Origin: Escherichia phage vB_EcoM_G17
Strand: one strand, 5' to 3'
Length of the DNA: 64,000 nucleotides
Sequence record: MK327931.1
Shown: positions 3,406 to 64,000 of the stretch, in pieces
How the letters are laid out: each line of letters opens with the position of its first letter
Numbering within the stretch: the first letter of the stretch is position 1
Translations under genes and position numbers: made by a program
The notes under the pieces: generated by a model
The model's database searches: none
Told to the model about the DNA's origin: nothing
The model's input: only the letters and a program-made list of their open reading frames with translations

Positions 3406-3948
3406 TTAGAGACAGTTGTGTACTATCTTATCAAAAGTACTACTGTCAATGTTATATTCATATAAAAATTTAAAATGTGAACCGTAACGCATCATCAGAT
3501 TAAACTCTTCTTCAGTATTGAACTTGTAATCATGAATAGTCTCAGGGGTACATTTTAAACCCAAGAACTCTATAATTTCAGATGTTACATCATATCCTGA
3601 ATTGAAGTATTTAACCCAAACACATTTTCCTTGTGGGTTGTATTTTCTATATTCTCCTTCTAGTTCTCCTTTAATAATATGAGCCTTAACACTTATTGAA
3701 TTATTACTATATCTTTCTTCAAAATAATTACCATACTGGGCTTTTGATATTGTTGGTTTTTGAGTAGGAAGTAATTTAACTGAAGTTACTTCAATTCCAT
3801 TTTGTAATTCCTTTATATAAGAAATGCATCCTTTTTCTTTAATAACCACATATCCAGTAAAGATATCTTCGTCTTGTGATTGATTAATGCAATCATCAAA
3901 ATTCAAAGTTTTATAAGTAACAGTTTTTTCTTTTCTAATAAATGCCAT
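3406..3948 (-). CDS. hypothetical protein
   Basis: ORF track 3406..4026 trimmed to ATG (MAFIRKEK) with AGGA SD. Confidence 0.5.
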   Translation of the reverse strand: MAFIRKEKTVTYKTLNFDDCINQSQDEDIFTGYVVIKEKGCISYIKELQNGIEVTSVKLLPTQKPTISKAQYGNYFEERYSNNSISVKAHIIKGELEGEYRKYNPQGKCVWVKYFNSGYDVTSEIIEFLGLKCTPETIHDYKFNTEEEFNLMMRYGSHFKFLYEYNIDSSTFDKIVHNCL

Positions 3949-4567
3949 CATTATTCCTATGGAAACATCAATGAATATACGTGACGTTGATTGCATCAAC
4001 ATCAGTAGAATTATCATGCTACGCATGTCTAATTCTACACAAGTACTATTTTCTTTTAATTAATATTGACGGGGTTTGCTTGAGCATATTTCATCCCCCC
4101 GCAGGGGAAAGAACAAAAAAATTTGACGCTGGTGGCCTTCACATAGTTCATATCACGAATTCTCTTACGAGACGAAAGCGGGTTGCTCTGTTTCTCTCTA
4201 TCGCGGTTCTTGTAGCAACGGTCGTCGGTCTTAAACATCCCGACACATAATACAAATACCATATGACCAGTACTTGTATTTGATTTCACAAAATTTGGAC
4301 GCAACTATATTGTATAATTCCGACCGCATATTTCTTATGAAATCTCCCTTAGATAATTGGTAAGGTGCGATCCTTATATGTCTATCGAGGAACTCTCTTT
4401 ATCCTATTGGAGTTCTTTATACAGCCGCATTGCCGTGAGTGGTTCAAACTATGCCATCATCTAACGGGTTTCATCTGCTGTTCGTACTGAAAGGACTACT
4501 CATCTACCCTCTACATTTTCGAGTGGATTAGGCTTTTAATCATTTCCTTATGGGAACCTTTCAGGAT

Positions 4568-4602
4568 TAAAAAAAGGTGACTAACATATTATGTTGTCAC
4601 CT
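4568..4602 (-). terminator. rho-independent terminator closing the leftward gene array
   Basis: Hairpin GGTGACAACAT/ATGTTAGTCACC at 4576-4601 followed on minus strand by U-run; directly after stop of 4632..5486. Confidence 0.7.
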
Positions 4603-4631
4603 TATATTATATCATTAACTTATCATTTGTC

Positions 4632-5486
4632 TCAGTTATATTCGGTTTTTTCTGTGAAATTTGTTAGTATATCAACACTAAAACTTCGAATAACCTCAAT
4701 CCTGCTTGGCATGAAACGATGTTTATTTTTAATATACAACTCATCATCTTCAATAAAAGACGTAAAAATAAATGTCATATCTTCACGTGGAATTTGTAAA
4801 ATATCACACATTTCATTTGCCGATGCTACTGGTGAATCGTTGTAGTACTGAGAGTATGCACTAGATTGGCGACCGATTATAATAGAATTTCTGATTAGAA
4901 AATTACTACAGTACTGAAAATCTTTGTAGTACTTTTCAATAATGTAAGGCATAAGTGCTTCTTTCACGTCTTCATAACCATTAGTACTATCAATTGCTAT
5001 ACAGTAATCTTCACGTTCTTTTTTCTCATGATGGTAATCATAAACATACTCAAAGAATGAATTTTTATTTAATGAATCATTTAAACCAACTGACCCACTA
5101 TAGTATGATTTTCTATCATTCATTCGATCATCTGGGCATGATGCATACATAGAAGTGTCATGTGATGATGTACCAATATAAATTTTCTTAGTAATATGAT
5201 TATACGCTATGTAATCATAATCTTGAACTCCAGTCAGCATTAACTGGAACATTAAATCATCAGGAACATCAATTAACGGGTACTCAAACTTCGAATATCT
5301 ACTGCGGCAGAAGTTCTTTTCAAATGCTCGGTATGCGATAAAATCTTTTAGATTTTTACAAGATTCATGTTCATGAGCACTACTGCTACGTACATTGACA
5401 TTAGTCGATGTGCAATATCCATCCGAATCTTCGGTGAAGTTACCAGCATAATCCTTATTGTAGTCAACGATTAGATAAAGTTTCAT
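4632..5486 (-). CDS. hypothetical protein, divergent FamA-like
   Basis: ORF track; 284 aa; contains DDLMFQLMLTG resembling FamA core. Confidence 0.6.
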   Translation of the reverse strand: MKLYLIVDYNKDYAGNFTEDSDGYCTSTNVNVRSSSAHEHESCKNLKDFIAYRAFEKNFCRSRYSKFEYPLIDVPDDLMFQLMLTGVQDYDYIAYNHITKKIYIGTSSHDTSMYASCPDDRMNDRKSYYSGSVGLNDSLNKNSFFEYVYDYHHEKKEREDYCIAIDSTNGYEDVKEALMPYIIEKYYKDFQYCSNFLIRNSIIIGRQSSAYSQYYNDSPVASANEMCDILQIPREDMTFIFTSFIEDDELYIKNKHRFMPSRIEVIRSFSVDILTNFTEKTEYN

Positions 5487-5497
5487 ACATCTCCAGA

Positions 5498-5532
5498 CAA
5501 AAAAAAGGACGAGATAACAAATCCCGTCCTTT
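5498..5532 (-). terminator. intra-array rho-independent terminator
   Basis: Hairpin AAGGACG..CGTCCTT at 5505-5531 with U-run on minus strand, between 5539..5844 and 4632..5486. Confidence 0.6.
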
Positions 5533-5538
5533 GGTTTA

Positions 5539-5844
5539 TTAGTGACTTGCCCAGCAGTAAACAGGACGTAGATTTTCCATTGGATTTACTTCAGGCTTCA
5601 GTACTGTTACACGTACTTCATATGGAGTTCCATCTGCGTGATGGAATGTTTCATAATGAATACTTTCAATAAATGTTTCGTATTCTTCTTGTGAACGTGA
5701 ACGTACTGATGATGAATATTTCTTTTTAGAATCTGCTTTAAGTGTAACACTAACTAGTTCTGATTCCTCACCTTCTTCAAGTTTGTTGAAATCGAACTCT
5801 GGTACACCTTCAAACATATCAAATTTCATTCCATTGTCTTCCAT
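5539..5844 (-). CDS. hypothetical protein
   Basis: ORF track; AAAGGA SD upstream. Confidence 0.6.
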   Translation of the reverse strand: MEDNGMKFDMFEGVPEFDFNKLEEGEESELVSVTLKADSKKKYSSSVRSRSQEEYETFIESIHYETFHHADGTPYEVRVTVLKPEVNPMENLRPVYCWASH

Positions 5845-5893
5845 TTTTAAATTCCTTTTATATAATGTTAATTAGATATTTTTAATAAGCAGA

Positions 5894-6280
5894 TTAGATT
5901 GTGTCATACTGTAGTGTTCCGTGACGGAATTTTTCAAGTCGTGCTAGAACTTCTTTTCGTTCAACAATTTCTGGAACATCTTCTTGTAGTTGATCACAAA
6001 CTTCAACAATGAAGTCCCAATCACTCTCACAACTTTGTCGTACCGCCTCAATTGTTTTCCAATCAGTACTGATATCACCATCAGCATTTTGATATACAGG
6101 CCAAACTTTTCCATAATCAGCAATGGATTTGTCATTTAGAATACGAATGGCATTGAAAATCTGACCAGTACTGAAGTGTTTTGTATTCTTCATATCTTCT
6201 AAACAGCATAGCTTTGGCTCACCTTTTACTTCAATGAGTAAAACACCACCAATTGCTTTTAGGACTGAACTTGTATTCAT
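5894..6280 (-). CDS. hypothetical protein
   Basis: ORF track; GGAGA SD upstream. Confidence 0.6.
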   Translation of the reverse strand: MNTSSVLKAIGGVLLIEVKGEPKLCCLEDMKNTKHFSTGQIFNAIRILNDKSIADYGKVWPVYQNADGDISTDWKTIEAVRQSCESDWDFIVEVCDQLQEDVPEIVERKEVLARLEKFRHGTLQYDTI

Positions 6281-6295
6281 CTATATCTCCGTTAT

Positions 6296-6350
6296 CAAAA
6301 AAAAGATGTGAACATTATATCACAAGAATCTAATATGTTCACATTATTTT
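6296..6350. terminator. bidirectional hairpin terminator
   Basis: 10-bp stem ATGTGAACAT/ATGTTCACAT at 6306-6344 flanked by A-run and T-run. Confidence 0.55.
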
Positions 6351-6352
6351 CA

Positions 6353-6646
6353 TTAGATTTTAATAATATTGTACCAGTTATCAAAATCCTCAATTGCTAG
6401 AATGAACATATTTTCATCATTGAAATCTAAAATATGTTCATTGTATAGGTAACTAATGTACTTGTTTTTGCATAGTCTAGCATTCATTAGTAACATTTCT
6501 ACTGCACGTTCATAAGAACAAGGAACAAGGTATAACTTAGTACCATCTTGGTGAATAATTTCCTCAGCACCATGTGGTATAAAACGTTCTGCTGTATGTG
6601 GAATATACGGCTTAGTTTTAAAAATAATTTTGAATTTAGTATCCAT
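6353..6646 (-). CDS. hypothetical protein
   Basis: ORF track. Confidence 0.6.
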   Translation of the reverse strand: MDTKFKIIFKTKPYIPHTAERFIPHGAEEIIHQDGTKLYLVPCSYERAVEMLLMNARLCKNKYISYLYNEHILDFNDENMFILAIEDFDNWYNIIKI

Positions 6647-6662
6647 ACCAAATCCTCCAGAT

Positions 6663-7517
6663 TTATAATGTTTCTTTTATGTTATGTAACATAGTATTAA
6701 CTATGCACATCTTACCACCTAACTTGTAGTAATATTCTAACTTATTAATAATATTACTTTTTAATATATCAAATATTTGATATTCATTTGGATCGAAACT
6801 AAGTTCGAATTGGAATGTATATAAATTGTTAAAGAGGTGAACTAATGATGCATCTGGTGATTCCATTGTAACTGTATATTTTTCACGATAACCAGTACTA
6901 ATCACTACTTCGGATATATCACCTTTCATGTATATGTCAATATTGTACATCATTGGTCTGCCTGTGGCAATATCTTTCATGCGAAAGAATGCAGTACTAC
7001 GATATACAATGCCTTCTGAAACCTGTTCTTGTATAGTGATATTTGAAACTTCACTCTCTTGGAATTTGGACTCGAATGAATGAGTGTAATTTGTTTTTTC
7101 ATTATCCGTGTGCATAGTACATGTGTATTTTCCAAAATCATCTCTAGATGTATATGATTTATCACTGCTAGTTTTATAGAACGAAACACCATTAATATGT
7201 TGTTCTTTATACATCATCGTGTCATGGGATTTGTAGTATGAACAATTAGGTGTTGAAAGAGATTCAAACTTGTTCACGTCATGACAGTAAGAAATAGAAG
7301 AATCGCTATACATTACTACATCACGAATTGCAACTTCTTTTGTAAAACCTTTTTTGACGGAAATTTGAAAGTCATTGTATGGGAAGATTGTATATCCATC
7401 GTATGCATCTGATGTACTGATACCAAATGGTGTAGTAGAATTCAGAAATTCGTTGATATGTTCAAGTACTGAATACTTTTTAAAATTAAGAAAATCTGAA
7501 ATATCTAACATATACAA
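6663..7517 (-). CDS. hypothetical protein
   Basis: ORF track; 284 aa. Confidence 0.6.
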   Translation of the reverse strand: MYMLDISDFLNFKKYSVLEHINEFLNSTTPFGISTSDAYDGYTIFPYNDFQISVKKGFTKEVAIRDVVMYSDSSISYCHDVNKFESLSTPNCSYYKSHDTMMYKEQHINGVSFYKTSSDKSYTSRDDFGKYTCTMHTDNEKTNYTHSFESKFQESEVSNITIQEQVSEGIVYRSTAFFRMKDIATGRPMMYNIDIYMKGDISEVVISTGYREKYTVTMESPDASLVHLFNNLYTFQFELSFDPNEYQIFDILKSNIINKLEYYYKLGGKMCIVNTMLHNIKETL

Positions 7518-7540
7518 TCCTCATAAATTTAGACAAAAAA

Positions 7541-7672
7541 TTAGTCGAGAATAAATCTCGACTTGTGTTTTACTTTACCATTTTTCATTTCTTTTTTACG
7601 ATCCACATGTGTCTGAGGCTTGTTAAACTCATTCATGTGTTTCTGTACGAAATTGTTTACTTTCTTAGCCAT
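7541..7672 (-). CDS. hypothetical small basic protein (43 aa)
   Basis: ATG with GGAG SD; lysine-rich; below ORF-track cutoff; 3-prime end overlaps terminator hairpin 7543-7563. Confidence 0.4.
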   Translation of the reverse strand: MAKKVNNFVQKHMNEFNKPQTHVDRKKEMKNGKVKHKSRFILD

Positions 7673-7674
7673 AC

Positions 7675-8148
7675 TTACTCCAAACTGGGATCTTTAACTG
7701 TTAGACTTTCTATGTCACTCGCATAAAGAACTACATTGGATTGATTTTCAGACACTTTAAAGTCGTGATAACTGTCTTTGACGATAAAATTATCTAATAT
7801 AAACCCTTTACTACAGCACATCATAATTTTATCATCTTTGATTGTGTAGGTGTTTTTCTTTTTACGTACTTCAGATTGTGGCGTAATACTATCGTTATTA
7901 CGAATAACACAATCAATATATTGTTCATTTGTACTCATAGGCATACCCATGATAAACGAGTTTTCAGTACTGATTGTTAGTATAAAAACGTTAGTATTTG
8001 GGTTGTGAAAAAAATCATGCATTGTCTTGCTACACAAAAATAGACATTGAATAATGTCCTTCACATTAAACATTATATCATGAACTTTGAATGCGTCCAA
8101 CTCTAAAATGTCATCAATTTTCCCATTTTCAACAGTTTTAATCTCCAT
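7675..8148 (-). CDS. hypothetical protein
   Basis: ORF track. Confidence 0.6.
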   Translation of the reverse strand: MEIKTVENGKIDDILELDAFKVHDIMFNVKDIIQCLFLCSKTMHDFFHNPNTNVFILTISTENSFIMGMPMSTNEQYIDCVIRNNDSITPQSEVRKKKNTYTIKDDKIMMCCSKGFILDNFIVKDSYHDFKVSENQSNVVLYASDIESLTVKDPSLE

Positions 8149-8190
8149 GATCTATCCTTGATCTTCTAATGCACTCCATGTGCGTTTTTA

Positions 8191-8688
8191 TTAAGTCACT
8201 GCATTATACTTCTCTATAGCATTAGTAATATTTAATATAGCTTCAGGAACCATTTCTTTATTGTATTCACGTTTTAAATTTTCCATTTTCTTAATAATTT
8301 CCAAGAAAAATGGCAAAATACATGAAGTATCTGTAAAATTACATGAGTACAAAGTACTCATTTGAAATAATTCACCTGAATCAATATTAAGAGATTTGTA
8401 TTCCTTAACAATGTTTTCGTTTGTATTGAAAATATGAAATACTGTTCCCATGTGATGAAGATATACACCATTCTCATTTTGAATATGGCATGGTGTGATT
8501 ACAATAGCAGTGTTGTCAATATTATTTACTATTGATAAACGTAGACTATGTAAACCTAAAATAACAGTACAATCACTTGAACTGCTTTGAATTTGGTCAG
8601 CAGTTTGTGTAACACTTGTAATATTTTCCCCATCAAGACAACTCTTGATTTTATCAAATGAATTTTTCATTGATTTAGTTAGATACAT
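8191..8688 (-). CDS. hypothetical protein, FamA paralog
   Basis: FamA core GELFQMSTLY. Confidence 0.65.
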   Translation of the reverse strand: MYLTKSMKNSFDKIKSCLDGENITSVTQTADQIQSSSSDCTVILGLHSLRLSIVNNIDNTAIVITPCHIQNENGVYLHHMGTVFHIFNTNENIVKEYKSLNIDSGELFQMSTLYSCNFTDTSCILPFFLEIIKKMENLKREYNKEMVPEAILNITNAIEKYNAVT

Positions 8689-9092
8689 TTATGAACACCT
8701 TCGAAATATTTGATTAATGATTTTATCATATCGCTACTAATGCCATGTAAGTCAACACCTAAACACTCGTATTGAAAAAAATCAATATCCTCCAGTGTGT
8801 TTAGATCAATTTCCACCTTATCATGACCCAACGAATTCATAATAACGTTTTTATCATTAATTGTCAAGAAAGTTTTTTTATCTGAACCTAAAAAGATTTT
8901 TACATGTTTTTTTGGCATTACATCATAAGATAAAGATTGTGAACCATAAATGTATATGCCTTCCATTGAACCAATATCTATAAAATATAGACGAATCCCT
9001 TTGTGGTATTTTGACTCCTTAGTGATCGCCTCTATTAGTTCATCTGTGGTTGTTAACCTTGTTTCTTTCTTCTCTAAATTGCTCAAATGCAT
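8679..9092 (-). CDS. hypothetical protein, FamA paralog
   Basis: FamA core IDFFQYECLG. Confidence 0.6.
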   Translation of the reverse strand: MHLSNLEKKETRLTTTDELIEAITKESKYHKGIRLYFIDIGSMEGIYIYGSQSLSYDVMPKKHVKIFLGSDKKTFLTINDKNVIMNSLGHDKVEIDLNTLEDIDFFQYECLGVDLHGISSDMIKSLIKYFEGVHKCI

Positions 9093-9513
9093 AAAATAAT
9101 ACCTTGATCATTTGTAATGTTTCTGACATTACATCAGCAGAAAATTGAACATCAGTGTATTTTACCATAGTACTTTGAGTAAAGAAAGTAGCTTCAATAT
9201 CTTCAAGGTCAAATGGTTCATCAAATAAATTAGTACTGAACATATCAGTTTTTTTCTTATAAGTCAACATAAACTTAGCACTGTATCTCAATACAATTTC
9301 ATCTTTACTTACTAAAATTCGTGCAATGTTCTGTCTACCCAGTGTTGTAATGTTAACATTAAACGTATTCTTTCGTGCCTCAACAATATCAACGAAATAA
9401 CCATCACCTTGGTAAACGTTATGACGAACTTCTAATCCTTGTTGAACTGTATTGAACAGTGCGTCCTGGATAAAATAATTTGCAGTATCGATGTTTCCTA
9501 AAATATCTAACAT
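9040..9513 (-). CDS. hypothetical protein, FamA paralog
   Basis: FamA variant core ATFFTQSTMV; start approximate (overlaps neighbour). Confidence 0.55.
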   Translation of the reverse strand: MLDILGNIDTANYFIQDALFNTVQQGLEVRHNVYQGDGYFVDIVEARKNTFNVNITTLGRQNIARILVSKDEIVLRYSAKFMLTYKKKTDMFSTNLFDEPFDLEDIEATFFTQSTMVKYTDVQFSADVMSETLQMIKVLFYAFEQFREERNKVNNHR

Positions 9514-10043
9514 AACTTCTCCTTTATAGCTGTCATATTTAGAAGAAATTCAGTAAGCAATTCCTCCGTAACATGCTCTGTATACCAGAATATCACAATA
9601 TCTTTTGAAAGTCGTGTATTCATAAAAATATCTACTAACTCTTTGTAGAACTCTAGTGTTTCGAGATTTGTGAGAATTAACGAGTACTGAAAGAGTAATT
9701 CTTCCGTTAGATTAAATTCTGGATAAAGTAAATCATTGAACTCATGTGATGCAGTTTGAACTTTAATTTCTTTGAAGTTATTGGTTATACAACCGGAATA
9801 AATATTTCGGTGCAACTCTCTGTACAACGCAGCATAATCTATGAATTTTGCTTTAGGGTTAAAATCAAGAACACTTTCACCTTTATATGACAATCGGTGG
9901 AACGCCGAGAACATAGTCACTTCCCACGGTTGCTTAATATCTAGCTCAGTAATATCAATATTATTGGACAGAAGAACCGTAAAAATCTCACCAATCTTTA
10001 ATAGTAACTTAGTACGTGCCAGTGCTACCATCGGGTCAGTCAT
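9507..10043 (-). CDS. hypothetical protein, FamA paralog
   Basis: FamA core EELLFQYSLI. Confidence 0.65.
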   Translation of the reverse strand: MTDPMVALARTKLLLKIGEIFTVLLSNNIDITELDIKQPWEVTMFSAFHRLSYKGESVLDFNPKAKFIDYAALYRELHRNIYSGCITNNFKEIKVQTASHEFNDLLYPEFNLTEELLFQYSLILTNLETLEFYKELVDIFMNTRLSKDIVIFWYTEHVTEELLTEFLLNMTAIKEKLC

Positions 10044-10456
10044 TATACACCTTCATATTCATCAAGAAAATCTTCGATAATCATTTCAGCTTCATCCATA
10101 TGCATAGCATCAACTTCAATGATGCGAACTTTAGATGCATCCCAAATCATAAAGCTAGGAACATTATCAGGCTCGTAGTCATTTTTGTACTGAACAGCAT
10201 CATAACCTTGAGCAGTGCAATTCTCAATAAGTGAACGCCACTCATCATCACTGCCTAAATCTTCACACAGAAGCACGTTATCAACATCAACTTCTAAGGT
10301 ATGCAAGTATACTGTACATGCGTCTACTACGTTCAGTGGGCTTCTCAGCTTGCGTAATGCAGCTTCCAAAGCACTGTGTTTACCTCCCATATGAAGACCA
10401 CCATACGGGATATAAAAGTTATCAATTTTTACAGTACTCGCATGATACAGTTTCAT
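10043..10456 (-). CDS. hypothetical protein (not FamA)
   Basis: ORF track; acidic C-terminus; no family motif. Confidence 0.6.
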   Translation of the reverse strand: MKLYHASTVKIDNFYIPYGGLHMGGKHSALEAALRKLRSPLNVVDACTVYLHTLEVDVDNVLLCEDLGSDDEWRSLIENCTAQGYDAVQYKNDYEPDNVPSFMIWDASKVRIIEVDAMHMDEAEMIIEDFLDEYEGV

Positions 10457-10465
10457 ATTTCATTC

Positions 10466-11050
10466 CTATTTCAGTACTTTAGTCAATGCTTTCACAGCGG
10501 TTTCGAGTTGAGCATAGTCGTTAATTGTAAGGTAATGAATACCATGTGCCTTCATTTCAGCATCTATTTTACTATATAAATCAAACATGTCAAGGATATG
10601 ATTGTATGCATATGAAGTATTTGAAACACACAATTCTTGGAACAAACGTTCTTCCAAGTCATTCACAACTTCTCCATGAATGTCAAGTACTACACCATCT
10701 TTGTAAGTGTAGTACTCTTCACTCCACTCTTCAGAAAGTCGGAACAGTAACGGATTCCCGCCGAACACTTCCATGTCATAGGAATTTATCTCACTAAGTA
10801 GTGTTTCACCTGGTTCTGGTGTGAAGTCAAAATATGCGAGTGTTGTACCATCATAGTCCTTGAGTGATATACCAGTATGATTTAAGGTTACTTCACCATA
10901 ATTATTATTCTTGAACTTGATTTTGATATTAATCTCAATGTATTTTATTGTCTCATCATCACTGAAATTGTAATCAACTTTATACTTTTTCCAAAGAAGT
11001 TTGATATCTTTGAAGTACTTTAATTTACTTTCAATTTCTTTAAAGTCCAT
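10466..11050 (-). CDS. hypothetical protein, FamA paralog
   Basis: FamA core EERLFQELCV. Confidence 0.6.
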   Translation of the reverse strand: MDFKEIESKLKYFKDIKLLWKKYKVDYNFSDDETIKYIEINIKIKFKNNNYGEVTLNHTGISLKDYDGTTLAYFDFTPEPGETLLSEINSYDMEVFGGNPLLFRLSEEWSEEYYTYKDGVVLDIHGEVVNDLEERLFQELCVSNTSYAYNHILDMFDLYSKIDAEMKAHGIHYLTINDYAQLETAVKALTKVLK

Positions 11051-11642
11051 CTGGAACCACCATTTCTTGAATGTGCTTACATTTTATATTTGCCATATTG
11101 GTATGTAATATAATGCTGTGTTTACGCAATGATTTTACTTTGTAGCACTCATTGAGTACTGAAATAATTCCCCATAACTCTTCTACACTAATAGTGATAG
11201 GTTCACTTGTACTCAGTTGCATCAGTGCTGCTTGAACATCATCTTTGTTATTAATAGTGAACTGGATTCCTCTTTTGAGAATTTTAGTTTTTGGATTGTA
11301 CTCAGCTAATACATCACCTTCTGGATAACCCTCATGAAGTAATAATGTTGTTTCAAAATCACCGCAGTTGAAGTTAATTTCATCATAATCAGGTACACAA
11401 ATGTTCCCTTCCCCGTACTCATTAGGTTCAGATTCTAGTGTTAAAATACGCTGAGTCTCATTGCTCAGGATGATAGAATCATTCCAGTACTGGGTAGTGA
11501 ATGCTCTACGTTTCTTTTGAAAGCACATACTCGACATTGAACCATACTTCTTGTATATGGACTTCTTGAACTCAATAGCAGCAGGAGCCACCTTGATAAC
11601 TTCACGAATTAAGTCAATAGCTTCTTGATAACTTTTTCTCAT
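11040..11642 (-). CDS. hypothetical protein
   Basis: ORF track; no clear FamA core. Confidence 0.55.
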   Translation of the reverse strand: MRKSYQEAIDLIREVIKVAPAAIEFKKSIYKKYGSMSSMCFQKKRRAFTTQYWNDSIILSNETQRILTLESEPNEYGEGNICVPDYDEINFNCGDFETTLLLHEGYPEGDVLAEYNPKTKILKRGIQFTINNKDDVQAALMQLSTSEPITISVEELWGIISVLNECYKVKSLRKHSIILHTNMANIKCKHIQEMVVPDGL

Positions 11643-12190
11643 TTATCGTATCCATATAAAATATGATCTAGTGTACTTTGTACTTCTTCATGAAAGAATG
11701 AAGGGTAAACTTGTATCAATTTATCTTTAAGTTCAAGGGAATGGCATAGTTCTAATGTTTTGTAACAATCCTCGTACTGTGCCAGATCATGTAATGTACT
11801 TAACTGAAAATGTTGTTCTTCGGAGTACAATAAATCATAAACCATATTATCGGATAAAAGATTAGATTTGATTGAAGGATCAAGTACTGTCTGGTGGTGA
11901 CCAACCCAAAAGATAGCTTTTGAGTTAATGTTATTACAACCCCATCCTTTCCCCATCTTTTGGTGAATAGCAAATACACAGGAATCATACAAATTAATGC
12001 TCAGACGTTCTTCGTCTGCATGGATAGTTACACCATCAATAGATAGTGTATATTTGAAATCCATAGCCCCCTCACTTCGTGCACGAGAACTAAAGACCAG
12101 ATATCGATGAATTATGGTATTGATTTTATCTGTCCATCCATCAACACATTTGGATGCACATAATGTAAAAAGATCATGATTGTAGTTCAT
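11639..12190 (-). CDS. hypothetical protein, FamA paralog
   Basis: FamA core EEQHFQLSTLH. Confidence 0.65.
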   Translation of the reverse strand: MNYNHDLFTLCASKCVDGWTDKINTIIHRYLVFSSRARSEGAMDFKYTLSIDGVTIHADEERLSINLYDSCVFAIHQKMGKGWGCNNINSKAIFWVGHHQTVLDPSIKSNLLSDNMVYDLLYSEEQHFQLSTLHDLAQYEDCYKTLELCHSLELKDKLIQVYPSFFHEEVQSTLDHILYGYDK

Positions 12191-12251
12191 AAAATTCTCC
12201 TTTAGGACAATGTATCATACAAAAATACCAGAGTCAACCCCTGGTACGAAT

Positions 12252-12833
12252 TTAATCCATCATAAGTGGGATAATTGCCCATATCTTTTTCATAATCATA
12301 TCTTCAGTAAAAACAAATGTTTTAGGAGCAGTATATGATATTGACACACCAAATGGAAGTTTGATTGCATCATCAATTATATTATGAATATCAAACCATG
12401 TTTTAACATAATCATACGGTGGAAGTTCATGAATTGTACTTAACTGAAAGTAATTCTCTTCACCAAAATCACTATATTCAATTTCACAAATTTTAGTGAA
12501 TTGATGATTCCATTTAGATATAATACTATTTTTATTATTGTACATAGTAGTTCTATGCATAAAACCATTTTTGCTAGTATGATTTGATATTACGTTTTCT
12601 TCAATGTCAGTATCTATTTTAAAATTCATATCAAAGTTGTAGTACGGACTTGACGATTCTTTGAATTTTAAATGTAAATTGCGATTGTTATTAATTTCAA
12701 TTTCAATACAAAACACATCTGAATCAAAACGATTAAACTTGTAATCGTTATCTTCCGGTAGATTCTGTATTTTTTTCATAATACTAAGCATAGGGTGTAC
12801 TACACTTTTAATAAAATCATTTGTTATTTTCAT
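12252..12833 (-). CDS. hypothetical protein, FamA paralog
   Basis: FamA core EENYFQLSTIH. Confidence 0.65.
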   Translation of the reverse strand: MKITNDFIKSVVHPMLSIMKKIQNLPEDNDYKFNRFDSDVFCIEIEINNNRNLHLKFKESSSPYYNFDMNFKIDTDIEENVISNHTSKNGFMHRTTMYNNKNSIISKWNHQFTKICEIEYSDFGEENYFQLSTIHELPPYDYVKTWFDIHNIIDDAIKLPFGVSISYTAPKTFVFTEDMIMKKIWAIIPLMMD

Positions 12834-13326
12834 AGTATTCCTTTAGAACTTTATATGATTCAACAATACTATCTTGTGTATAATTTGAACTATATACAAC
12901 AGCACTTGTTTTAGTTGACCATAGATATGACATAAAGGTTATAACACTACTACATGGACTTAATGTATTGTTTTGAAATTCAATTTCTTCAATGTTATCA
13001 GTACTGGTATAGATGAATTGGAAAGTACCCATTGATTTATTGGACAGCGATACTATAGTAGAATCCGTACCAGGACTATACATGAATGTCTCATTACTAA
13101 TTGAACTATCATTAGTATATGATGGTTTGGGAATATAAATCAAACGCATGATATCGCGTTCAAGACCTGACTTATTACTTTCCACCAAAGAAATCATATC
13201 TATATTTGATATATGTTCAACACTGACATGGAACTTTTTGTCGAGAATCACATCTCCATGAGAATTTTTATATGAAGACAAAATCTCATACATCTCAACT
13301 AATTCGCGTGCATTTAATAAACTCAT
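12817..13326 (-). CDS. hypothetical protein, FamA paralog
   Basis: FamA core EEIEFQNNTL. Confidence 0.6.
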   Translation of the reverse strand: MSLLNARELVEMYEILSSYKNSHGDVILDKKFHVSVEHISNIDMISLVESNKSGLERDIMRLIYIPKPSYTNDSSISNETFMYSPGTDSTIVSLSNKSMGTFQFIYTSTDNIEEIEFQNNTLSPCSSVITFMSYLWSTKTSAVVYSSNYTQDSIVESYKVLKEYYENNK

Positions 13327-13751
13327 GTTTTGTCTCTTAATGAAAGAATATCCTTAGTATAAACTGAAACAGAAATATGATTATATTTCATCATTAATTT
13401 ATACACATAAGAAGCTAGTACTAAATCGTAAATTAATTTAGTATTATACAGTACTTGGTATTGTAACGCAAGTGAATCAATATCATCTTTACTTTCAATA
13501 TCCAGAAATGTACCGAAAAATGTAGTACCGTAGAGATGAAAAGTGGAATTAATGCAATCAATGCATTCATTGTCCAATAGAGTAGATGCTGATGCCCTCG
13601 GTGAATCCCAAATAGTCACTGCGTGTATGCCCTCAACGAACAAATCTATCCATATTTTGTGTCGTTGTCTTTTTTTTGTTTTATAATTTTCTGGATTTGA
13701 AAGTGTAGTTTCAATTATATCCCATATGTACAAACAATCATCTCTTGTCAT
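13323..13751 (-). CDS. hypothetical protein
   Basis: ORF track; ATGA coupling; no clear FamA core. Confidence 0.55.
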   Translation of the reverse strand: MTRDDCLYIWDIIETTLSNPENYKTKKRQRHKIWIDLFVEGIHAVTIWDSPRASASTLLDNECIDCINSTFHLYGTTFFGTFLDIESKDDIDSLALQYQVLYNTKLIYDLVLASYVYKLMMKYNHISVSVYTKDILSLRDKT

Positions 13752-14329
13752 TATATAACCTTATCCATTGCTGCATTTAATGCTTTTAAACGATCTACAT
13801 TCAAATTATTGAAGATGTACGTTCCTAACATGTGGAAATCGAACTGGTTCTTTTTGTATTCATGATAAATTAAACTACAAAAAATAATAGTACTAAGAAC
13901 CTCTTCAGGTATAACAGTGCTCATCTGGAACAGTTCTTCTTCAACTGTACTTGAATCTGGATTGATAGATTTTAACACATACTCTTCATCACCGAATAGT
14001 ACTTTAATATTATATAAAACACCAACAGTACTAATATGGAATGGGTGGTGTGAAAAACTTCCATCATCCTTAATTTGTATATCGGTTCTAATCTCACACT
14101 CTTCATTACTTTTACTTTTATTTTTTACAATACAAATATTTCTGGCCCCAGAAATAGTAAGAATACCGTGGTCGTAATATTCATTTGACCAACATTTGGA
14201 TGAAATTGATACATCACGGATGAGATATTGTTTTTCAATTTCTTTCGCACTACCAACAATTGATAGCATTTTTTTACTGATATCATATAATAACTGATGG
14301 CGTTCTGTCATATAACTATAAGCGTTCAT
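13751..14329 (-). CDS. hypothetical protein, FamA paralog
   Basis: FamA core EEELFQMSTVI. Confidence 0.65.
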   Translation of the reverse strand: MNAYSYMTERHQLLYDISKKMLSIVGSAKEIEKQYLIRDVSISSKCWSNEYYDHGILTISGARNICIVKNKSKSNEECEIRTDIQIKDDGSFSHHPFHISTVGVLYNIKVLFGDEEYVLKSINPDSSTVEEELFQMSTVIPEEVLSTIIFCSLIYHEYKKNQFDFHMLGTYIFNNLNVDRLKALNAAMDKVI

Positions 14330-14900
14330 ATTTTTCCTTAACAGATTCTATATTTTGAAGTAGTGTATTCAGAACATCAGTCTTGCAATTGATAAAATCA
14401 TTGTACATAACTAGTTCACCACAATCAAGAATTTTTGCAGTATCGTAACAAAGCATTAAGTACTCGAATTCTTTGTAATTGTCCAACAAGGATTTCTGGA
14501 AAATGAATGCATCTCGAATATCTTCACTTTGGTCTAATTCTGGTGGAACATCCAACCCAATAAATCCATCATCTTCACTGAAATTAGATTCTACAATTTT
14601 ATTCATTTTTTCATGTAATGCATTCGCAAATACCATATTAGAAGAAATAGAACCAATACGTTCACGATTTCTGGATGTGCGAATGTACATAGTAATCGTA
14701 TCCCATGAACTTTTAATTTTTTTAGAAAATTCATAAGTTTTATATACATCCAACTGAACTGATCCAAAACGATGTTTGGATTTGTTTTCAATTTTCAGTC
14801 GATAATCATCAAATTCAACAATTTCTGTAATGTCATGAATCTCTGAAAGTTCTGCAATGTCATGCATGAGTCTCAAAATTTTAGTTCTGATATGGTTCAT
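14316..14900 (-). CDS. hypothetical protein, FamA paralog
   Basis: FamA core DAFIFQKSLL. Confidence 0.65.
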   Translation of the reverse strand: MNHIRTKILRLMHDIAELSEIHDITEIVEFDDYRLKIENKSKHRFGSVQLDVYKTYEFSKKIKSSWDTITMYIRTSRNRERIGSISSNMVFANALHEKMNKIVESNFSEDDGFIGLDVPPELDQSEDIRDAFIFQKSLLDNYKEFEYLMLCYDTAKILDCGELVMYNDFINCKTDVLNTLLQNIESVKEKYERL

Positions 14901-24099: not shown

Positions 24100-24548
24100 T
24101 CTATACCTTCTGGATCTTTACGAAGTTCTTCGAAATCCAAATAAAATCGAGGACAGTTAACACTCTTTAAGTACCACATAATAACTAATGCTTCAAGTAC
24201 TTCATCATCGTAAACAGTACTGTTTTGGAAGTAATACTCTTCACTATCCCACGGACCATCCAGTACTTCATAATTCAAAATTAATGGTTTTTTGCGATTA
24301 ATAAAACGAATGCTACCATTTTCAACATAACTAATAAATTCTGCATCTCTATTGTATTCAGAAAACGATATAGGACTATTGGAATTCAACCCAAGAATAA
24401 CCCTTACACCCACGGAGTTATTATACATTTCATCTTTGTAGTAGTTGCCGTTCTCGGCTTTGTACACTTCTTTGAACTTTCCTGCCTTTATATCGTCAAA
24501 GTATCCATGTAGTTCTTTTGCTTTTTCAAGAGCACTTTGTAATGACAT
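24096..24548 (-). CDS. hypothetical protein, FamA paralog (MSLQSAL subfamily)
   Basis: Core SEEYYFQNSTVY; N-term MSLQSALEKAK; C-term FYLDF. Confidence 0.7.
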   Translation of the reverse strand: MSLQSALEKAKELHGYFDDIKAGKFKEVYKAENGNYYKDEMYNNSVGVRVILGLNSNSPISFSEYNRDAEFISYVENGSIRFINRKKPLILNYEVLDGPWDSEEYYFQNSTVYDDEVLEALVIMWYLKSVNCPRFYLDFEELRKDPEGIE

Positions 24549-25925: not shown

Positions 25926-26417
25926 TCAACCCCTGTTAATACCGTTATCTACAGTTTTCTTTACGTATTTGTAATCGAAATAGAAGTTCCCAGAACCAAT
26001 ACTTTTAAAGTACCACATAATTATAATAACATCAAGTACTTCATTATCATATACAGTACTTTGTTGGAAGTAATACTCTTCACTATCCCACGGACCTTCC
26101 AGTACTTCACTCGGAATTATAATGTCATTGGAATCGCTGTCAGTACTGTTGATGGTATCTGTATCATTAATATAGACCATGTACTCATTATGCATATTAA
26201 TGAAGCATTCATAATCATTAGGGTCGGTATCTAGTATGCACGTTTCTGTATCCAGTACGCACGTTTCTGTATCTGAGCAGTCATTATAAAGGAGGTTATC
26301 CGGTACATAATATTGAGTACTTGTGTCTTTGAAAACACCGTAAACTGAACCTTCTTTTGCCATATTCATGTACTCATGAATCTTCTTTGCTTTTTCCAAT
26401 GAACTCTGTAATGTCAT
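25926..26417 (-). CDS. hypothetical protein, FamA paralog (MSLQSAL subfamily)
   Basis: Core SEEYYFQQSTVY; N-term MTLQSSLEKAK. Confidence 0.7.
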   Translation of the reverse strand: MTLQSSLEKAKKIHEYMNMAKEGSVYGVFKDTSTQYYVPDNLLYNDCSDTETCVLDTETCILDTDPNDYECFINMHNEYMVYINDTDTINSTDSDSNDIIIPSEVLEGPWDSEEYYFQQSTVYDNEVLDVIIIMWYFKSIGSGNFYFDYKYVKKTVDNGINRG

Positions 26418-26786: not shown

Positions 26787-27139
26787 TCTTGAATTCCTAA
26801 ATTGAATTTGTATTCTTGATTAATACTTGCATTGGGTTTATGCAAAGCAGCATACTCTTTCATTTCATTTTGTATTGCAATAACTTCTTCAAATGTACAC
26901 AAGTACTTCTTATCAAATACTAATGATTCTTGGAATAGTTCTGCGGTATCCATTAATGTATAGTCCGGCATATCTTGGTGTGGATACTGTAATGAACTGT
27001 AATCAATGAATGTAAATTTACCCTGAGTGTAATGAATATACTCATTTGCACTGTGCATTAAATCACCTTTGTTTAAATTACAAAAGTACTGATAACTGTG
27101 CTTGAAAGTATGTACTGATATTAAAAAATCAAATTCCAT
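26783..27139 (-). CDS. hypothetical protein, FamA paralog
   Basis: FamA core AELFQESLVF; N-terminus MEFDFLISVH. Confidence 0.65.
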   Translation of the reverse strand: MEFDFLISVHTFKHSYQYFCNLNKGDLMHSANEYIHYTQGKFTFIDYSSLQYPHQDMPDYTLMDTAELFQESLVFDKKYLCTFEEVIAIQNEMKEYAALHKPNASINQEYKFNLGIQE

Positions 27140-27510
27140 CAGTACTCAACCTCTACATAAATAGATTCAGGAAACTTAGTCATATAATCTTCTGGATAGT
27201 TCTGCATTACTTTGATCATTTCTGCCTGTGTAGCACGGACGTATTCAATTGGTGCTCCTGGTAAATTCCAGACAGTACTTTCCTGAAAGAATTCCTCTTC
27301 TGACAGTACTGTCAGATTTACAAAATCATTACGGTAATTTTTTGAATCATCATATGTGAAGATTTTAAAAGACCCATTTTCATATAGTACAAGAACAAAA
27401 TGGGAGAATTTTTGTAATGCACCACCAAGGCTTTCCACGACCGCATGATTCAGTGTACAGATGACCTCTTTTTTCCTCATACCGAATTGAATTCTAATTT
27501 CTTTTTTCAT
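27139..27510 (-). CDS. hypothetical protein, FamA paralog
   Basis: FamA core EEEFFQESTVW. Confidence 0.65.
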   Translation of the reverse strand: MKKEIRIQFGMRKKEVICTLNHAVVESLGGALQKFSHFVLVLYENGSFKIFTYDDSKNYRNDFVNLTVLSEEEFFQESTVWNLPGAPIEYVRATQAEMIKVMQNYPEDYMTKFPESIYVEVEY

Positions 27511-27582: not shown

Positions 27583-27669
27583 ATAATCAAATCACCTTTG
27601 TTTAAATTACAAAAGTACTGATAACTGTGCTTAAAAGAATGTACTGATATTAAAAAATCAAATTCCATC
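27583..27669 (-). pseudogene. 5-prime gene fragment duplicated from 26783..27139
   Basis: About 87 bp nearly identical to 27056-27141 (start region of 26783..27139), encodes MEFDFLISVHSFKHSYQYFCNLNKGD then diverges. Confidence 0.5.
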
Positions 27670-28045
27670 ACACTTCCCCTAGATTGAAATGATTACAAAA
27701 ATCATCTTCACCAGTACTGCACCAGATATCTATACATTCCCTGTGAATACATTTAATTCTACGCTGTAATTCAATCATCTCTTCTAATGTACAGATGTAC
27801 TTCTTATCAAATACTAATGCCGCCTGAAACAGTGCAGCATCATCAAGTACTGTATAGTCCAACATCTCGGTTGCTTTACCCCTAAACCCAGTACTAAAAT
27901 CCATCAAATAAAAGTCAGCATTCCAGTACTTTAAAATCTTGTCCCTAGCGTAGTTTAAATCACCCTTGTATAAGTTAGAGTGCGTAACTAACTCACCAGT
28001 GTACATCCATGTCCTTGCACAAAATTCATTATATTTTATTTCCAT
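27668..28045 (-). CDS. hypothetical protein, FamA paralog
   Basis: FamA core AALFQAALVF; ORF-track N-terminal extension through GC-rich non-coding stretch removed (start at MEIKYNEF). Confidence 0.55.
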   Translation of the reverse strand: MEIKYNEFCARTWMYTGELVTHSNLYKGDLNYARDKILKYWNADFYLMDFSTGFRGKATEMLDYTVLDDAALFQAALVFDKKYICTLEEMIELQRRIKCIHRECIDIWCSTGEDDFCNHFNLGEV

Positions 28046-28243
28046 CTTAATCTCTACTATAATTAATAAGGTAAACTCCAATATAAGGAGAACGTTCGGC
28101 GGCGGGGTATTTTTTGTTTCAAGAAACATGAACTGTACTCTGAAAAACACAATATAAAACTTTATATTAAACATATACCTTAGCATGTTTTTCAGCGGAA
28201 ATTTTTTTGACCCCCCCCTGCGGCCTGTCAAAATGAAACGTCT

Positions 28244-28468
28244 CTATTTATTCAGCCTAGAAACCTTGATTTCTTCAATCCTTTTCATTGCACAAAGCCT
28301 TCGACTCGTCCTCTCGTATATATTCAATACTCGCTGTAATGCATTATCTGTATTATCTGCAACTGCAATCTGAACCAAATATGTATCCTTCAAAATAGAA
28401 TCCATCATGAATTCAAAACCTTTCACACTAAAGCAATATGCCACTTCCGGCTCTTCAAACGTAATCAT
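28244..28468 (-). CDS. hypothetical protein (non-family)
   Basis: ORF track. Confidence 0.5.
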   Translation of the reverse strand: MITFEEPEVAYCFSVKGFEFMMDSILKDTYLVQIAVADNTDNALQRVLNIYERTSRRLCAMKRIEEIKVSRLNK

Positions 28469-61534: not shown

Positions 61535-61575
61535 GCTGTTGCCCTTATCGTTGGTGTATGAATAAAACACTATTA

Positions 61576-61606
61576 TAAAGTACTATCGCAAAAAATGATA
61601 GTACTT
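61576..61606. promoter_or_regulatory. 11-bp inverted repeat AAAGTACTATC / GATAGTACTTT (candidate operator or attenuator)
   Basis: Perfect 11-bp arms separated by 9 bp, each containing AGTACT; sits where a -35 box would be expected upstream of 61268..61534. Confidence 0.35.
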
Positions 61607-61619
61607 TAAATAAATTCTA

Positions 61620-63635: not shown

Positions 63636-64000
63636 TAGCTTTCTTTCATTATTCAGTACTGATATTCTTGAGAACTACCCGACTACAAACATCATTATAT
63701 CCCACAAATCATAAACGTCCCAACGTAAATTTCAACTTTCGAAGATCCAACTTTTATTTCATAGGTACTCCAAAATTTTTAGGATCGAGATTTAGGATGG
63801 AGTACTAACCAACTTTTTGCTGGAGCCTCAAGGGGTAATTGAATTTTACCCCGAAGGGTAAAAGGGTAATTGTAATTAAGGTGAAAGTAATAATTCAGTA
63901 CTAATCATTGCGTGATTACTTTTGATTACATTTGATGTAATTTGCAAAATGGAAAAGGAGCTTGGAAACTACAAAGTACGGCAGACTTCCTCTGCCTACT

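Follow-up and report, generated by a model that had tools for sequence, protein, structure and literature searches.

A candidate large structured non-coding RNA gene common to Rak2-like jumbo phages and integrative islands of Enterobacterales

Near the start of the 64,000-nucleotide stretch of Escherichia phage vB_EcoM_G17 (MK327931.1) analyzed here, hereafter the window, an intergenic region at 4027–4631 is bounded by two open reading frames (ORFs) on the minus strand, 3406..4026 and 4632..5486. From its sequence, this region very probably holds a real gene for a structured RNA. The first 12 kb of the window are 100% identical to Escherichia phage Sharanji and 99.5% identical to 121Q, and the window is, by this similarity, DNA of an Asteriusvirus, a Rak2-like jumbo phage of ~350 kb. 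An earlier reading of the letters alone (the original prediction) had singled out the locus as an island richer in guanine and cytosine (GC). The GC content of 4030–4567, the stretch that it named, does exceed that of the 2-kb flanks (0.398 versus 0.325), but measured against all 538-bp windows of the 64-kb window the excess amounts to z = 1.44, and 9.6% of those windows are as high. Composition by itself is ordinary here; conservation and covariation are what lift the region far above chance. The original prediction found a real feature on weak ground, with the RNA most likely antisense to the strand that it read.

A sensitive blastn search with positions 4027–4600 matched 70 GenBank phage records, all of them Rak2-like and each with four to five matching places. 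The matched phages comprise Asteriusvirus, Munch/7t3, fENko-Kae01, GAP32, CBB, Serratia BF, the Erwinia pEa_SNUABM phages, Yersinia fHe-Yen9 and Xanthomonas XbC2/XaC1, with a short match only in RaK2/K64-1. Overall, about 60 Rak2-like phages of several genera share the stretch. Outside the genus, identity is 66–75%, and nearly all records are without annotation beneath the match. The near-identical, unannotated Asteriusvirus genome ECO103 4-12-1 was assembled; it contains four copies, at 18.3, 128.3, 208.1 and 261.5 kb, which share one orientation and are mutually 70–74% identical over ~480 nt. The window itself holds a single copy according to both blastn and the covariance model described below. 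The locus is syntenic in Munch and RaK2, beside a Dam methylase neighbor, and the RaK2 homologue is divergent yet clear (nhmmer E = 3.5e-43). Two motif scans of IMG/VR, filtered by nhmmer and the covariance model (3 of 54 pattern matches were chance and were dropped), yielded 55 distinct instances on 21 contigs, all of them Rak2-like jumbo phage genomes or shorter viral contigs.

The copies group by locus type, not by genome, so the paralogues are older than the genera. Judged by these comparisons, this Asteriusvirus genome has four ancient paralogues, of which the RNA in the window is one, and related genera carry four to five. The copies in 121Q lie at gp168/sigma factor gp167, at gp595/endonuclease VII, at gp515/gp517 (gp516 being a spurious ORF within the RNA) and beside the Dam-neighbor gene. 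The proteins neighboring the four copies are unrelated to one another, and no conserved protein partner was found in the phages; one copy (copy B) is convergent with its neighboring gene, and layouts of a terminator followed by a promoter occur upstream of the RNA. Because the neighbors are unrelated and one copy is convergent with the next gene, we read the RNA as an independent gene and not as a common leader.

The fold was recovered with RNAalifold and with an all-against-all, structure-free covariation scan, the pseudoknots coming from both, and a model of 84 pairs, set out in the minus sense, was scored on 27 sequences that MAFFT had aligned without reference to structure. Standard pairs fill 92.0% of the cells of this model, compared with 73.7% in shuffles (none of 500 reaches the observed value) and 35–42% in slid controls. 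Both sides change at 60 of the 84 pairs, with a covariation score of 0.477 versus 0.164. The fold contains at least 13 covariation-supported helices, which make up a domain of three helices at the 5′ end, a multi-helix junction in the center and three pseudoknots (Table 1). Helices E, N and F and pseudoknot PK1 are 99.5–100% paired while showing two to four pair types per position. Peripheral modules have been gained and lost between paralogues: the AAUUUUGGACG...UUGUA module sits at either of two sites and, in some paralogues, lies inside the tip of hairpin G. The evidence for the fold is comparative, as folding one sequence on its own gives nothing notable (z = −1.47 for minus and 0.00 for plus).

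A covariance model of the core (R1, 120 positions) scores 4145–4269 on the minus strand at 101.3 bits (E = 4e-28), the window sequence being a member of its training set; copies outside that set score 66–100 bits, and nothing else in the window exceeds 16 bits. By R1 and the profile A1, the window has the marks of the family, namely helices E, F, G and J and the invariant PK1 sequence. The hairpin of a C-run and GCAGGGG that the original prediction had placed at about 4100–4115 is real and present in all homologues, although it lies at 4094–4108 (hairpin B). Its suggested likeness to 28205–28230 proved superficial, consisting of a C8 run followed by TGCGG, with no homology by blastn or covariance model.

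Table 1. Features of the RNA locus, in window coordinates
Feature	Position	Strand	Basis or remark
−35-like TGAGACA (class TGRRACR)	4628..4634	−	15–17 nt from the −10 in 27/27 phage copies (including RaK2)
Extended −10 TGATATAAT	4606..4614	−	Inferred transcription start near 4599
Hairpin (stems 4574–4581 / 4596–4603) followed by U-run	4567..4603	−	Terminator of upstream gene 4632..5486
Conserved RNA core, ~507 nt	4060..4566	−	Conservation profile; 66–75% identity across genera; 84-pair model
5′ domain: helix Q (4487–4493 : 4558–4564) around hairpins R and S	4487..4564	−	6/7 pairs of Q change on both sides
Hairpin R	4502–4511 : 4521–4533	−	6/8 pairs change on both sides
Hairpin S	4544–4547 : 4553–4556	−	Poorly aligned under MAFFT, 52% paired
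Helix N	4421–4425 : 4477–4481	−	100% paired, 4/5 compensatory; encloses O and a variable-length tip (region 4421..4481)
Helix O	4433–4438 : 4460–4467	−	Near-invariant
Hairpin M	4390–4395 : 4410–4415	−	6/6 pairs compensatory
Hairpin L	4361–4364 : 4373–4376	−	In region 4352..4415
Pseudoknot PK2	4352–4354 : 4401–4403 (M loop)	−	All-against-all scan; 3/3 pairs covary (GC/UA/AU, CG/AU, AU/UA/CG)
Variable peripheral module, AAUUUUGGACGCAAC...UUGUA type	4281..4346	−	Alignment; missing in some paralogues
Hairpin X	4249–4259 : 4270–4280	−	10/11 pairs compensatory
Pseudoknot helix E	4147–4153 : 4261–4267 (X loop)	−	99.5% paired, 5/7 compensatory
Helix F, enclosing G	4154–4158 : 4201–4205	−	100% paired, 4/5 compensatory
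Hairpin G	4161–4164 : 4169–4172	−	Inside helix F
Hairpin J	4224–4227 : 4241–4244	−	100% paired, 3/4 compensatory
Pseudoknot PK1	4182–4186 : 4215–4219	−	100% paired, 3/5 compensatory
Core junction (F, G, J, PK1), with near-invariant stretch AGAGAGAAACAGAGCAACCCGCUUUCG	4147..4247	−	Conserved
Hairpin B, CCCC(U)GC GGGGGG on the RNA strand	4094..4108	−	In all copies; one-sided changes, none compensatory
Possible 3′ extension: long hairpin 4006–4037 (apical CGUAG), short hairpin 3986–4000	3986..4037	−	Inferred
Spurious ORFs 3981..4250(+), 4056..4304(−), also 4365..4490(+)	3981..4304		Overlie the RNA gene; no family match, unconserved

All copies share a promoter-like layout of fixed spacing on the minus strand, TGRRACR-N15-17-(TGn)TATAAT, which in the window reads TGAGACA-N16-TGATATAAT. 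The −10 is TATAAT or TACAAT, mostly after TGn, and lies 8–45 nt outside helix Q in every copy; all nine of the bacterial island copies described below have the same TGRRACR −35 at the kept spacing. A regular expression for the class finds two matches in the window compared with 0.42 in shuffles, and 23 sites in the whole Asteriusvirus genome (ECO103), 21 of which are on this strand. The second instance in the window, TGRRACR-N16-TGnTATAAT, is at 63722–63694(−). In CBB and GAP32, a promoter class described as 'TGAAACG −35 / TATA −10' occurs upstream of DNA-synthesis genes (PMC5259590), and the predicted promoter at 4634–4606 has the features of that class. TTGACG motifs inside the element were also considered as −35 boxes and rejected, as no −10 stands at the right spacing.

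The predicted start, at ~4599, falls within the 5′ arm of the terminator hairpin at 4603–4567, and the same order of promoter, hairpin and U-run recurs in the orthologues of Munch and four metagenomic genomes. At the other end, the core of every phage and island copy is followed closely on its 3′ side by a long hairpin whose apex bears a ACGNAGUGAG-like motif, and then by a second hairpin; with these two further hairpins, the transcript would probably measure ~600–650 nt. Other genera have downstream of the core a conserved block of ~90 nt, GAAUUGAGUU...ACGAAGUGAAGUACAG...UUGACA-palindrome-GGCAAAU (the window equivalent is 3986–4060(−)), and the downstream flank in RaK2 holds three ACGAAGUGA-like repeats. 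From its sequence, this block could be a 3′ domain of the RNA, a set of iterons or the operator or promoter of the next gene.

We are fairly confident, from several features of the sequences, that the RNA is read from the minus strand. This call rests on hairpin X, the promoter of fixed spacing, the A/G-rich invariant columns and the G·U counts of the island copies. The wobble pairs of hairpin X exist only on the minus strand (read on plus, the same positions give 119 A·C and 6 G·U), and the hairpin is more stable there in 29 of 29 sequences (−12.1 versus −5.7 kcal/mol). On the minus strand, the invariant columns comprise 37 A, 30 G, 28 C and 14 U, and an A/G bias of conserved positions is usual in structured RNAs. 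The nine island copies, which stood outside model building, have 44 G·U against 11 A·C on the minus strand; in them, hairpin X is 99% paired, with 17 G·U against 1 A·C.

These island copies emerged from a motif scan of one genome per prokaryotic species, which gave 43 pattern matches; 34 of these were chance and were removed by the covariance model, and the other nine are full-length homologues (core-model scores of 88–100 bits; nhmmer E = 1e-76 to 1e-105). Their hosts are a complete Serratia fonticola chromosome, contigs of 185–620 kb assigned to Citrobacter amalonaticus, Enterobacter chinensis, Silvania, Serratia sp. and Enterobacteriaceae RIT714, and three metagenome-assembled genomes. The DNA around these copies is low in GC (0.39–0.45 in most of the loci) and forms islands of ~10–11 kb, as exemplified in CP193790.1 (locus numbering 3578–14464). 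Recurrent components are an integrase (large serine or tyrosine), the RNA, a CI-like HTH/Peptidase_S24 repressor, a divergent winged-helix regulator (HTH_35), a 286-amino acid protein of unassigned family, an LprI-like protein and a DNA invertase. In the ~11 kb of an island, integrase, CI-like repressor, winged-helix regulator and defense cargo are present, and no capsid or terminase gene was seen. The defense cargo varies, with Kiwa KwaAB in one island and DUF4326/DUF488/dual-OB in another, and insertion sites include rlmI–yccX, ppdD–hofB, rof–tilS and ffs. One complete island of ~11 kb lies between rlmI and yccX and ends with Kiwa kwaB and kwaA; its RNA occupies an unannotated 1-kb gap.

Island copies retain the 3′ hairpins and helices as well as the promoter, on the same strand, with a terminator ahead of it after the integrase gene. 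In the Citrobacter island, at ~3410–3520 of the locus, two tandem TGAAACA-N16-TGGTATAAT promoters precede the RNA. Most island copies form a clade of their own, 65–71% identical to the phage copies, and the E. coli copy shares 81% identity with one type of phage paralogue. Among complete E. coli genomes, 2 of 5,426 have a copy (E. coli LR-29-1 is among the carriers), which again is unannotated and lies in an island beside ffs with different cargo. Searching GenBank phages with the island RNA matched only the same 61 Rak2-like records, and a plasmid search found no copies. The 286-amino acid core protein is widespread in Enterobacter, Klebsiella, Raoultella and Silvania, and no phage homologue of it was found. 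Near the island RNA, no conserved partner protein was found beyond the integrase and the CI-like repressor, and PHROG and PADLOC annotation of the unassigned island ORFs was uninformative. Sequence comparison indicates that a promoter-plus-RNA cassette is common to jumbo phages and Enterobacterales islands, which overlap in host range.

The family is absent from Rfam 15 and, as far as the literature could be searched, undescribed. As the original prediction had proposed a comparison with Rfam, we searched the whole window with all 4,227 covariance models of Rfam 15 (including those of group I/II introns, RNase P, tmRNA, 6S, GOLLD, ROOL, OLE, HEARO and hammerhead) and found no match at the gathering threshold. 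With a permissive threshold, 3900–4700 gave chance-level matches on the terminator hairpin only (E ≥ 0.17), and the loci of the other three paralogues of 121Q, of the orthologues in Munch and RaK2 and of one island copy gave nothing that overlapped the element. ARAGORN found no tRNA or tmRNA gene in the window, in agreement with the earlier remark that no tRNA-like cloverleaf was visible. The searchable literature contains no description of this RNA, with the proviso that the more than 10,000 viral RNA candidates of Fremin et al. 2023 were not individually compared. Nor does the element resemble a group I intron: the flanking ORFs are separate and unrelated, it has its own promoter, RF00028 gives no match at E ≤ 10, and in our reading the helix order with pseudoknots E/X, PK1 and PK2 differs from the P3–P7 topology. 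A ToxI-like type III toxin–antitoxin system is likewise not indicated, as the element has no tandem repeats and no conserved neighboring protein (in islands, the integrase and repressor only). Two motifs were tried and set aside. Hammerhead-like CUGANGA...GAAA strings occur in other genera, but the copies in Asteriusvirus read UUGACGGG at this point, with a stem II that fails to fit and no Rfam hit in support; an 11-nt tetraloop receptor (CCUAAG/UAUGG) is not conserved.

The two ORFs to which the original prediction had drawn attention, 3981..4250(+) and 4056..4304(−), are in the ORF list and overlap each other, with lengths of 89 and 82 codons. Pfam gave no credible match for either, the best being DUF5771 at E = 0.037, below the cut-off. 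Open frames among homologues vary in strand, frame and position and are not conserved, alignment gaps number 428, 161 and 107 for lengths of 1, 2 and 0 modulo 3, and we found neither a conserved ORF nor codon-like substitutions or indels. Comparable ORFs over the RNA are called 'hypothetical protein' in several GenBank records, such as 121Q (gp516) and SHEFM2K; with E9.1, JP4, WPEC5, BAU.Micro_ELP-22 and SD-x_Sxx, these records place one to four such proteins across the RNA gene. In UE-S1, one RNA copy (311377–311882) is labeled 'repeat_region'. These ORF and repeat annotations are probably mis-annotations, and the spurious 'hypothetical proteins' in GenBank warrant correction.

Several other features of the window were recorded in passing. 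At 280–1120(−), three tandem small ORFs of 103, 88 and 91 amino acids share the N-terminal pattern MNYK..L.YTY.I..DL and look, from their sequences, like a tandem paralogous gene family; other internal repeats are 24159–24270 / 25998–26109 and 27057–27141 / 27586–27670. This family or these repeats are presumably the 'array' of the original prediction. Positions 28205–28245 read TTTTTTTGAC-C8-TGCGGCCTGTCAAAA, followed directly by TGAAACG, a phage −35-type motif, and are unrelated to the RNA. The motif GTACTTTAW has 24 sites in the window compared with 2.4 expected (for example, 49529–49566 and 61575–61609). Some of its copies are arranged as inverted pairs, TAAAGTACTAT...ATAGTACTTTA, that flank divergent promoter-like sites (TTGACA-N17-TATAAT at 49537(−) is one), and the motif may be a phage operator or promoter element.

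Taken as a whole, the locus is probably best explained as a stand-alone gene whose product is a large non-coding RNA with extensive structure, although other explanations deserve to be weighed. The main rival, which we consider unlikely, is that the element belongs to a replication origin, its promoter transcript being a structured pre-primer RNA like ColE1 RNA II or the R-loops of T4 oriF/oriG; the four to five copies would then be multiple origins, and island copies would let the phage replisome replicate the island. Rak2-like phages have T4-like replisomes and RNase H genes, which counts in favor of an origin. So do the several dispersed copies per 350-kb genome, the promoter of a class found upstream of CBB DNA-synthesis genes (PMC5259590), and the ACGNAGUGA motifs that recur, along with conserved hairpins, immediately after the core. 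The island ORFs tested also include no recognizable replication gene, but since island gene functions are mostly unassigned, its lack is not established. A fold with three pseudoknots and ~100 invariant nucleotides goes far beyond the known needs of primer RNAs, however, and T4 origins have no common sequence. Cumulative GC skew has no inflection at the elements (18, 128, 208 and 261 kb), changing sign at 136, 158–174 and 322 kb, which is weak evidence because skew in such phages mostly follows transcription. We find it very unlikely that the element is a long cis-acting 5′ leader, such as a riboswitch-like element or attenuator, controlling gene 3406..3954, which lies downstream on the minus strand. 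Three of the four copies do run in the same direction as the gene that follows, with no terminator between, and in the window copy a hairpin and U-run stand between promoter and RNA body; yet the four copies are followed by genes unrelated to one another, the island copies as well as copy B are convergent with the next gene, and the downstream genes have promoter-like sites of their own (4059–4032 in the window; TTGACA-N17-TAGAAT in copy A).

That the functional RNA lies on the plus strand, or forms a convergent sense/antisense pair, strikes us as unlikely, although the plus strand was our own first call. RNAalifold run on that strand gave, for its own predicted pairs, 357 G·U against 68 A·C, a count biased by the strand that is folded: the excess is largely ascertainment, as the minus-strand fold collects its own set of wobbles, and the G·U pairs peculiar to plus are found where helices end or in helices that show no compensatory change. 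Stability is slightly greater on plus for hairpins M, G+F, J and L, a C-GNRA-G-like loop (GAAA, GGAA or GCAA) occurs only there, and the enriched GTACTTTAW stands just 5′ of the plus-sense element. Hairpin X, with its 10–11 covarying pairs, cannot form on plus in many sequences; no −35/−10 pair of fixed spacing was found there, whereas the minus promoter is kept in 36 of 36 phage and island copies, and the island sequences favor minus. Because of the fold-strand bias, the restriction of X to the minus strand and the conservation of the promoter on that side, we withdrew the plus-strand call. We give almost no credence to the idea that the locus is a protein gene in decay, two small ORFs or the inert remnant of a mobile element. 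ORFs of 89 and 82 codons are indeed present and hypothetical proteins are annotated there in several GenBank records, but they match no family, their frames vary among homologues, indels are not in multiples of three and substitutions compensate one another so as to keep base pairs; tandem repeats are absent, and positions are syntenic across genera.

The original prediction had named a structured RNA, a degraded mobile-element remnant and a horizontally acquired fragment as candidates. Covariation at 60 of 84 pairs, three pseudoknots and the conserved promoter bear out the first. The second finds no support, the element being intact, under purifying selection for structure and syntenic across genera, with copies that cluster by locus type. 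The third holds to the extent that the cassette is shared with bacterial integrative islands; in the phage, however, it is an old, multi-copy resident gene.

Some observations weigh against a minus-strand structured RNA gene as we have described it. The aligned sequences are related, so the shuffle control overstates significance, and the slid control and the many pairs of several types are the sounder evidence. A terminator for the minus-strand RNA was looked for and none was found. G·U pairs are gained only on the plus strand at the base of M, the J extension, the tip of G and helix D (4131–4135 : 4382–4386), full-length folding energies are equal between strands (15 versus 15 sequences), and the enriched GTACTTTAW at the element's other end leaves room for plus-strand or convergent transcription.

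For the stand-alone structured RNA, we envision a sequence of events in which transcription would start from the phage-class promoter on the minus strand, so that the RNA would be made together with the class of DNA-replication genes that have the same promoter type. It would then act through its three-dimensional fold, and not by simple base-pairing or as DNA, either as a ribozyme or as the scaffold or partner of some factor from the phage or the host. Such a fold-dependent, trans-acting mechanism is plausible, although we hold it at somewhat less than an even chance. Island copies could exploit the same recognition, either in satellite-like hijacking by way of an infecting jumbo phage or as a decoy that interferes with the phage. 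More tentatively still, an RNA essential to the phage might be the handle of an interaction between Rak2-like phages and the widespread ~11-kb islands, as a satellite–helper link in which the phage would recognize and propagate the island, or as an anti-phage decoy that would poison an RNA-dependent process of the phage.

Large non-coding RNAs with complex tertiary folds are rare, comprising those of the ribosome, RNase P, group I/II introns, OLE, GOLLD and ROOL, and each has led to new biochemistry. The RNA described here occurs four to five times in every genome of cultivable jumbo phages of E. coli, Klebsiella, Salmonella and Erwinia that are under development for therapy; because it is multi-copy in a cultivable phage group, genetics, RNA sequencing (RNA-seq) and cryo-electron microscopy (cryo-EM) would be feasible at once. 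The same cassette is found in defense-cargo islands of clinical Enterobacter, Klebsiella, Citrobacter and Serratia genomes. Its sharing points to a type of RNA-mediated interaction between phage and island, whether hijacking, origin piracy or a decoy, that has so far gone undescribed, at a time when the first jumbo-phage satellites are being reported. If the RNA does act as a handle for the islands, it would represent a new class among the large ornate RNAs, and one whose biological role is open to study in E. coli phages that can be cultivated.

Among known systems, the GOLLD and ROOL 'ornate large' RNAs, for which cryo-EM structures are available (PMC12286853), are similar in that they are large (500–800 nt), have many helices and pseudoknots, are borne by phages or prophages, stand alone, have no assigned function and were found by covariation. 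The present RNA differs in having no sequence or covariance-model similarity to them, another helix order and no association with tRNA genes (none are in the window), and in its occurrence in Enterobacterales jumbo phages and islands with four to five paralogues per genome. ColE1 RNA II and the T4 oriF/oriG transcripts are also promoter-driven; the ColE1 RNA is structured and ~550 nt long, and T4 has several origins per genome and involves a promoter of the replication class. Those RNAs are cis primers with simple stem-loops or no conserved structure, whereas the fold here is far more elaborate and is accompanied by no skew signal.

Two smaller RNAs offer a parallel for the distribution between phage and host. 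Pseudo-ToxI in phage PhiTE is an RNA mimic of a host defense element, and both it and the P4 CI RNA exemplify one RNA in a virulent phage and in a chromosomal element of its host range, a likeness that suggests mimicry, hijacking or decoy. ToxI, however, is a tandem 36-nt repeat beside a toxin gene, whereas this element has no repeats and no conserved protein partner, and the P4 CI RNA, at 69 nt, is about ten times smaller than the RNA considered here.

Putative long non-coding RNAs are described in PA5oct, a jumbo phage distantly related to the Rak2 group, in which RNA-seq revealed ncRNA001–004 (236–619 nt), two of them highly expressed (PMC7318152). We detected no homology between these and the present RNA, the covariance model giving nothing and nhmmer one weak hairpin match (E = 0.022). 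At the 3′ end of ncRNA004 (972–1016), a hairpin, UUUCCUUCCC-AAAC-GGGGAGGAAA, resembles hairpin B on the matching strand and at the matching end, a resemblance too weak for homology. As for the islands, I55/JPTI55 of Pseudomonas is an integrase-bearing island with defense cargo and no transfer genes that is mobilized by a jumbo phage (PMC12595487). Although it differs from the islands described here in its host genus, in its size of 55 kb and in that no common non-coding element is reported for it, I55 provides a precedent for a partnership between an integrative island and a jumbo phage.

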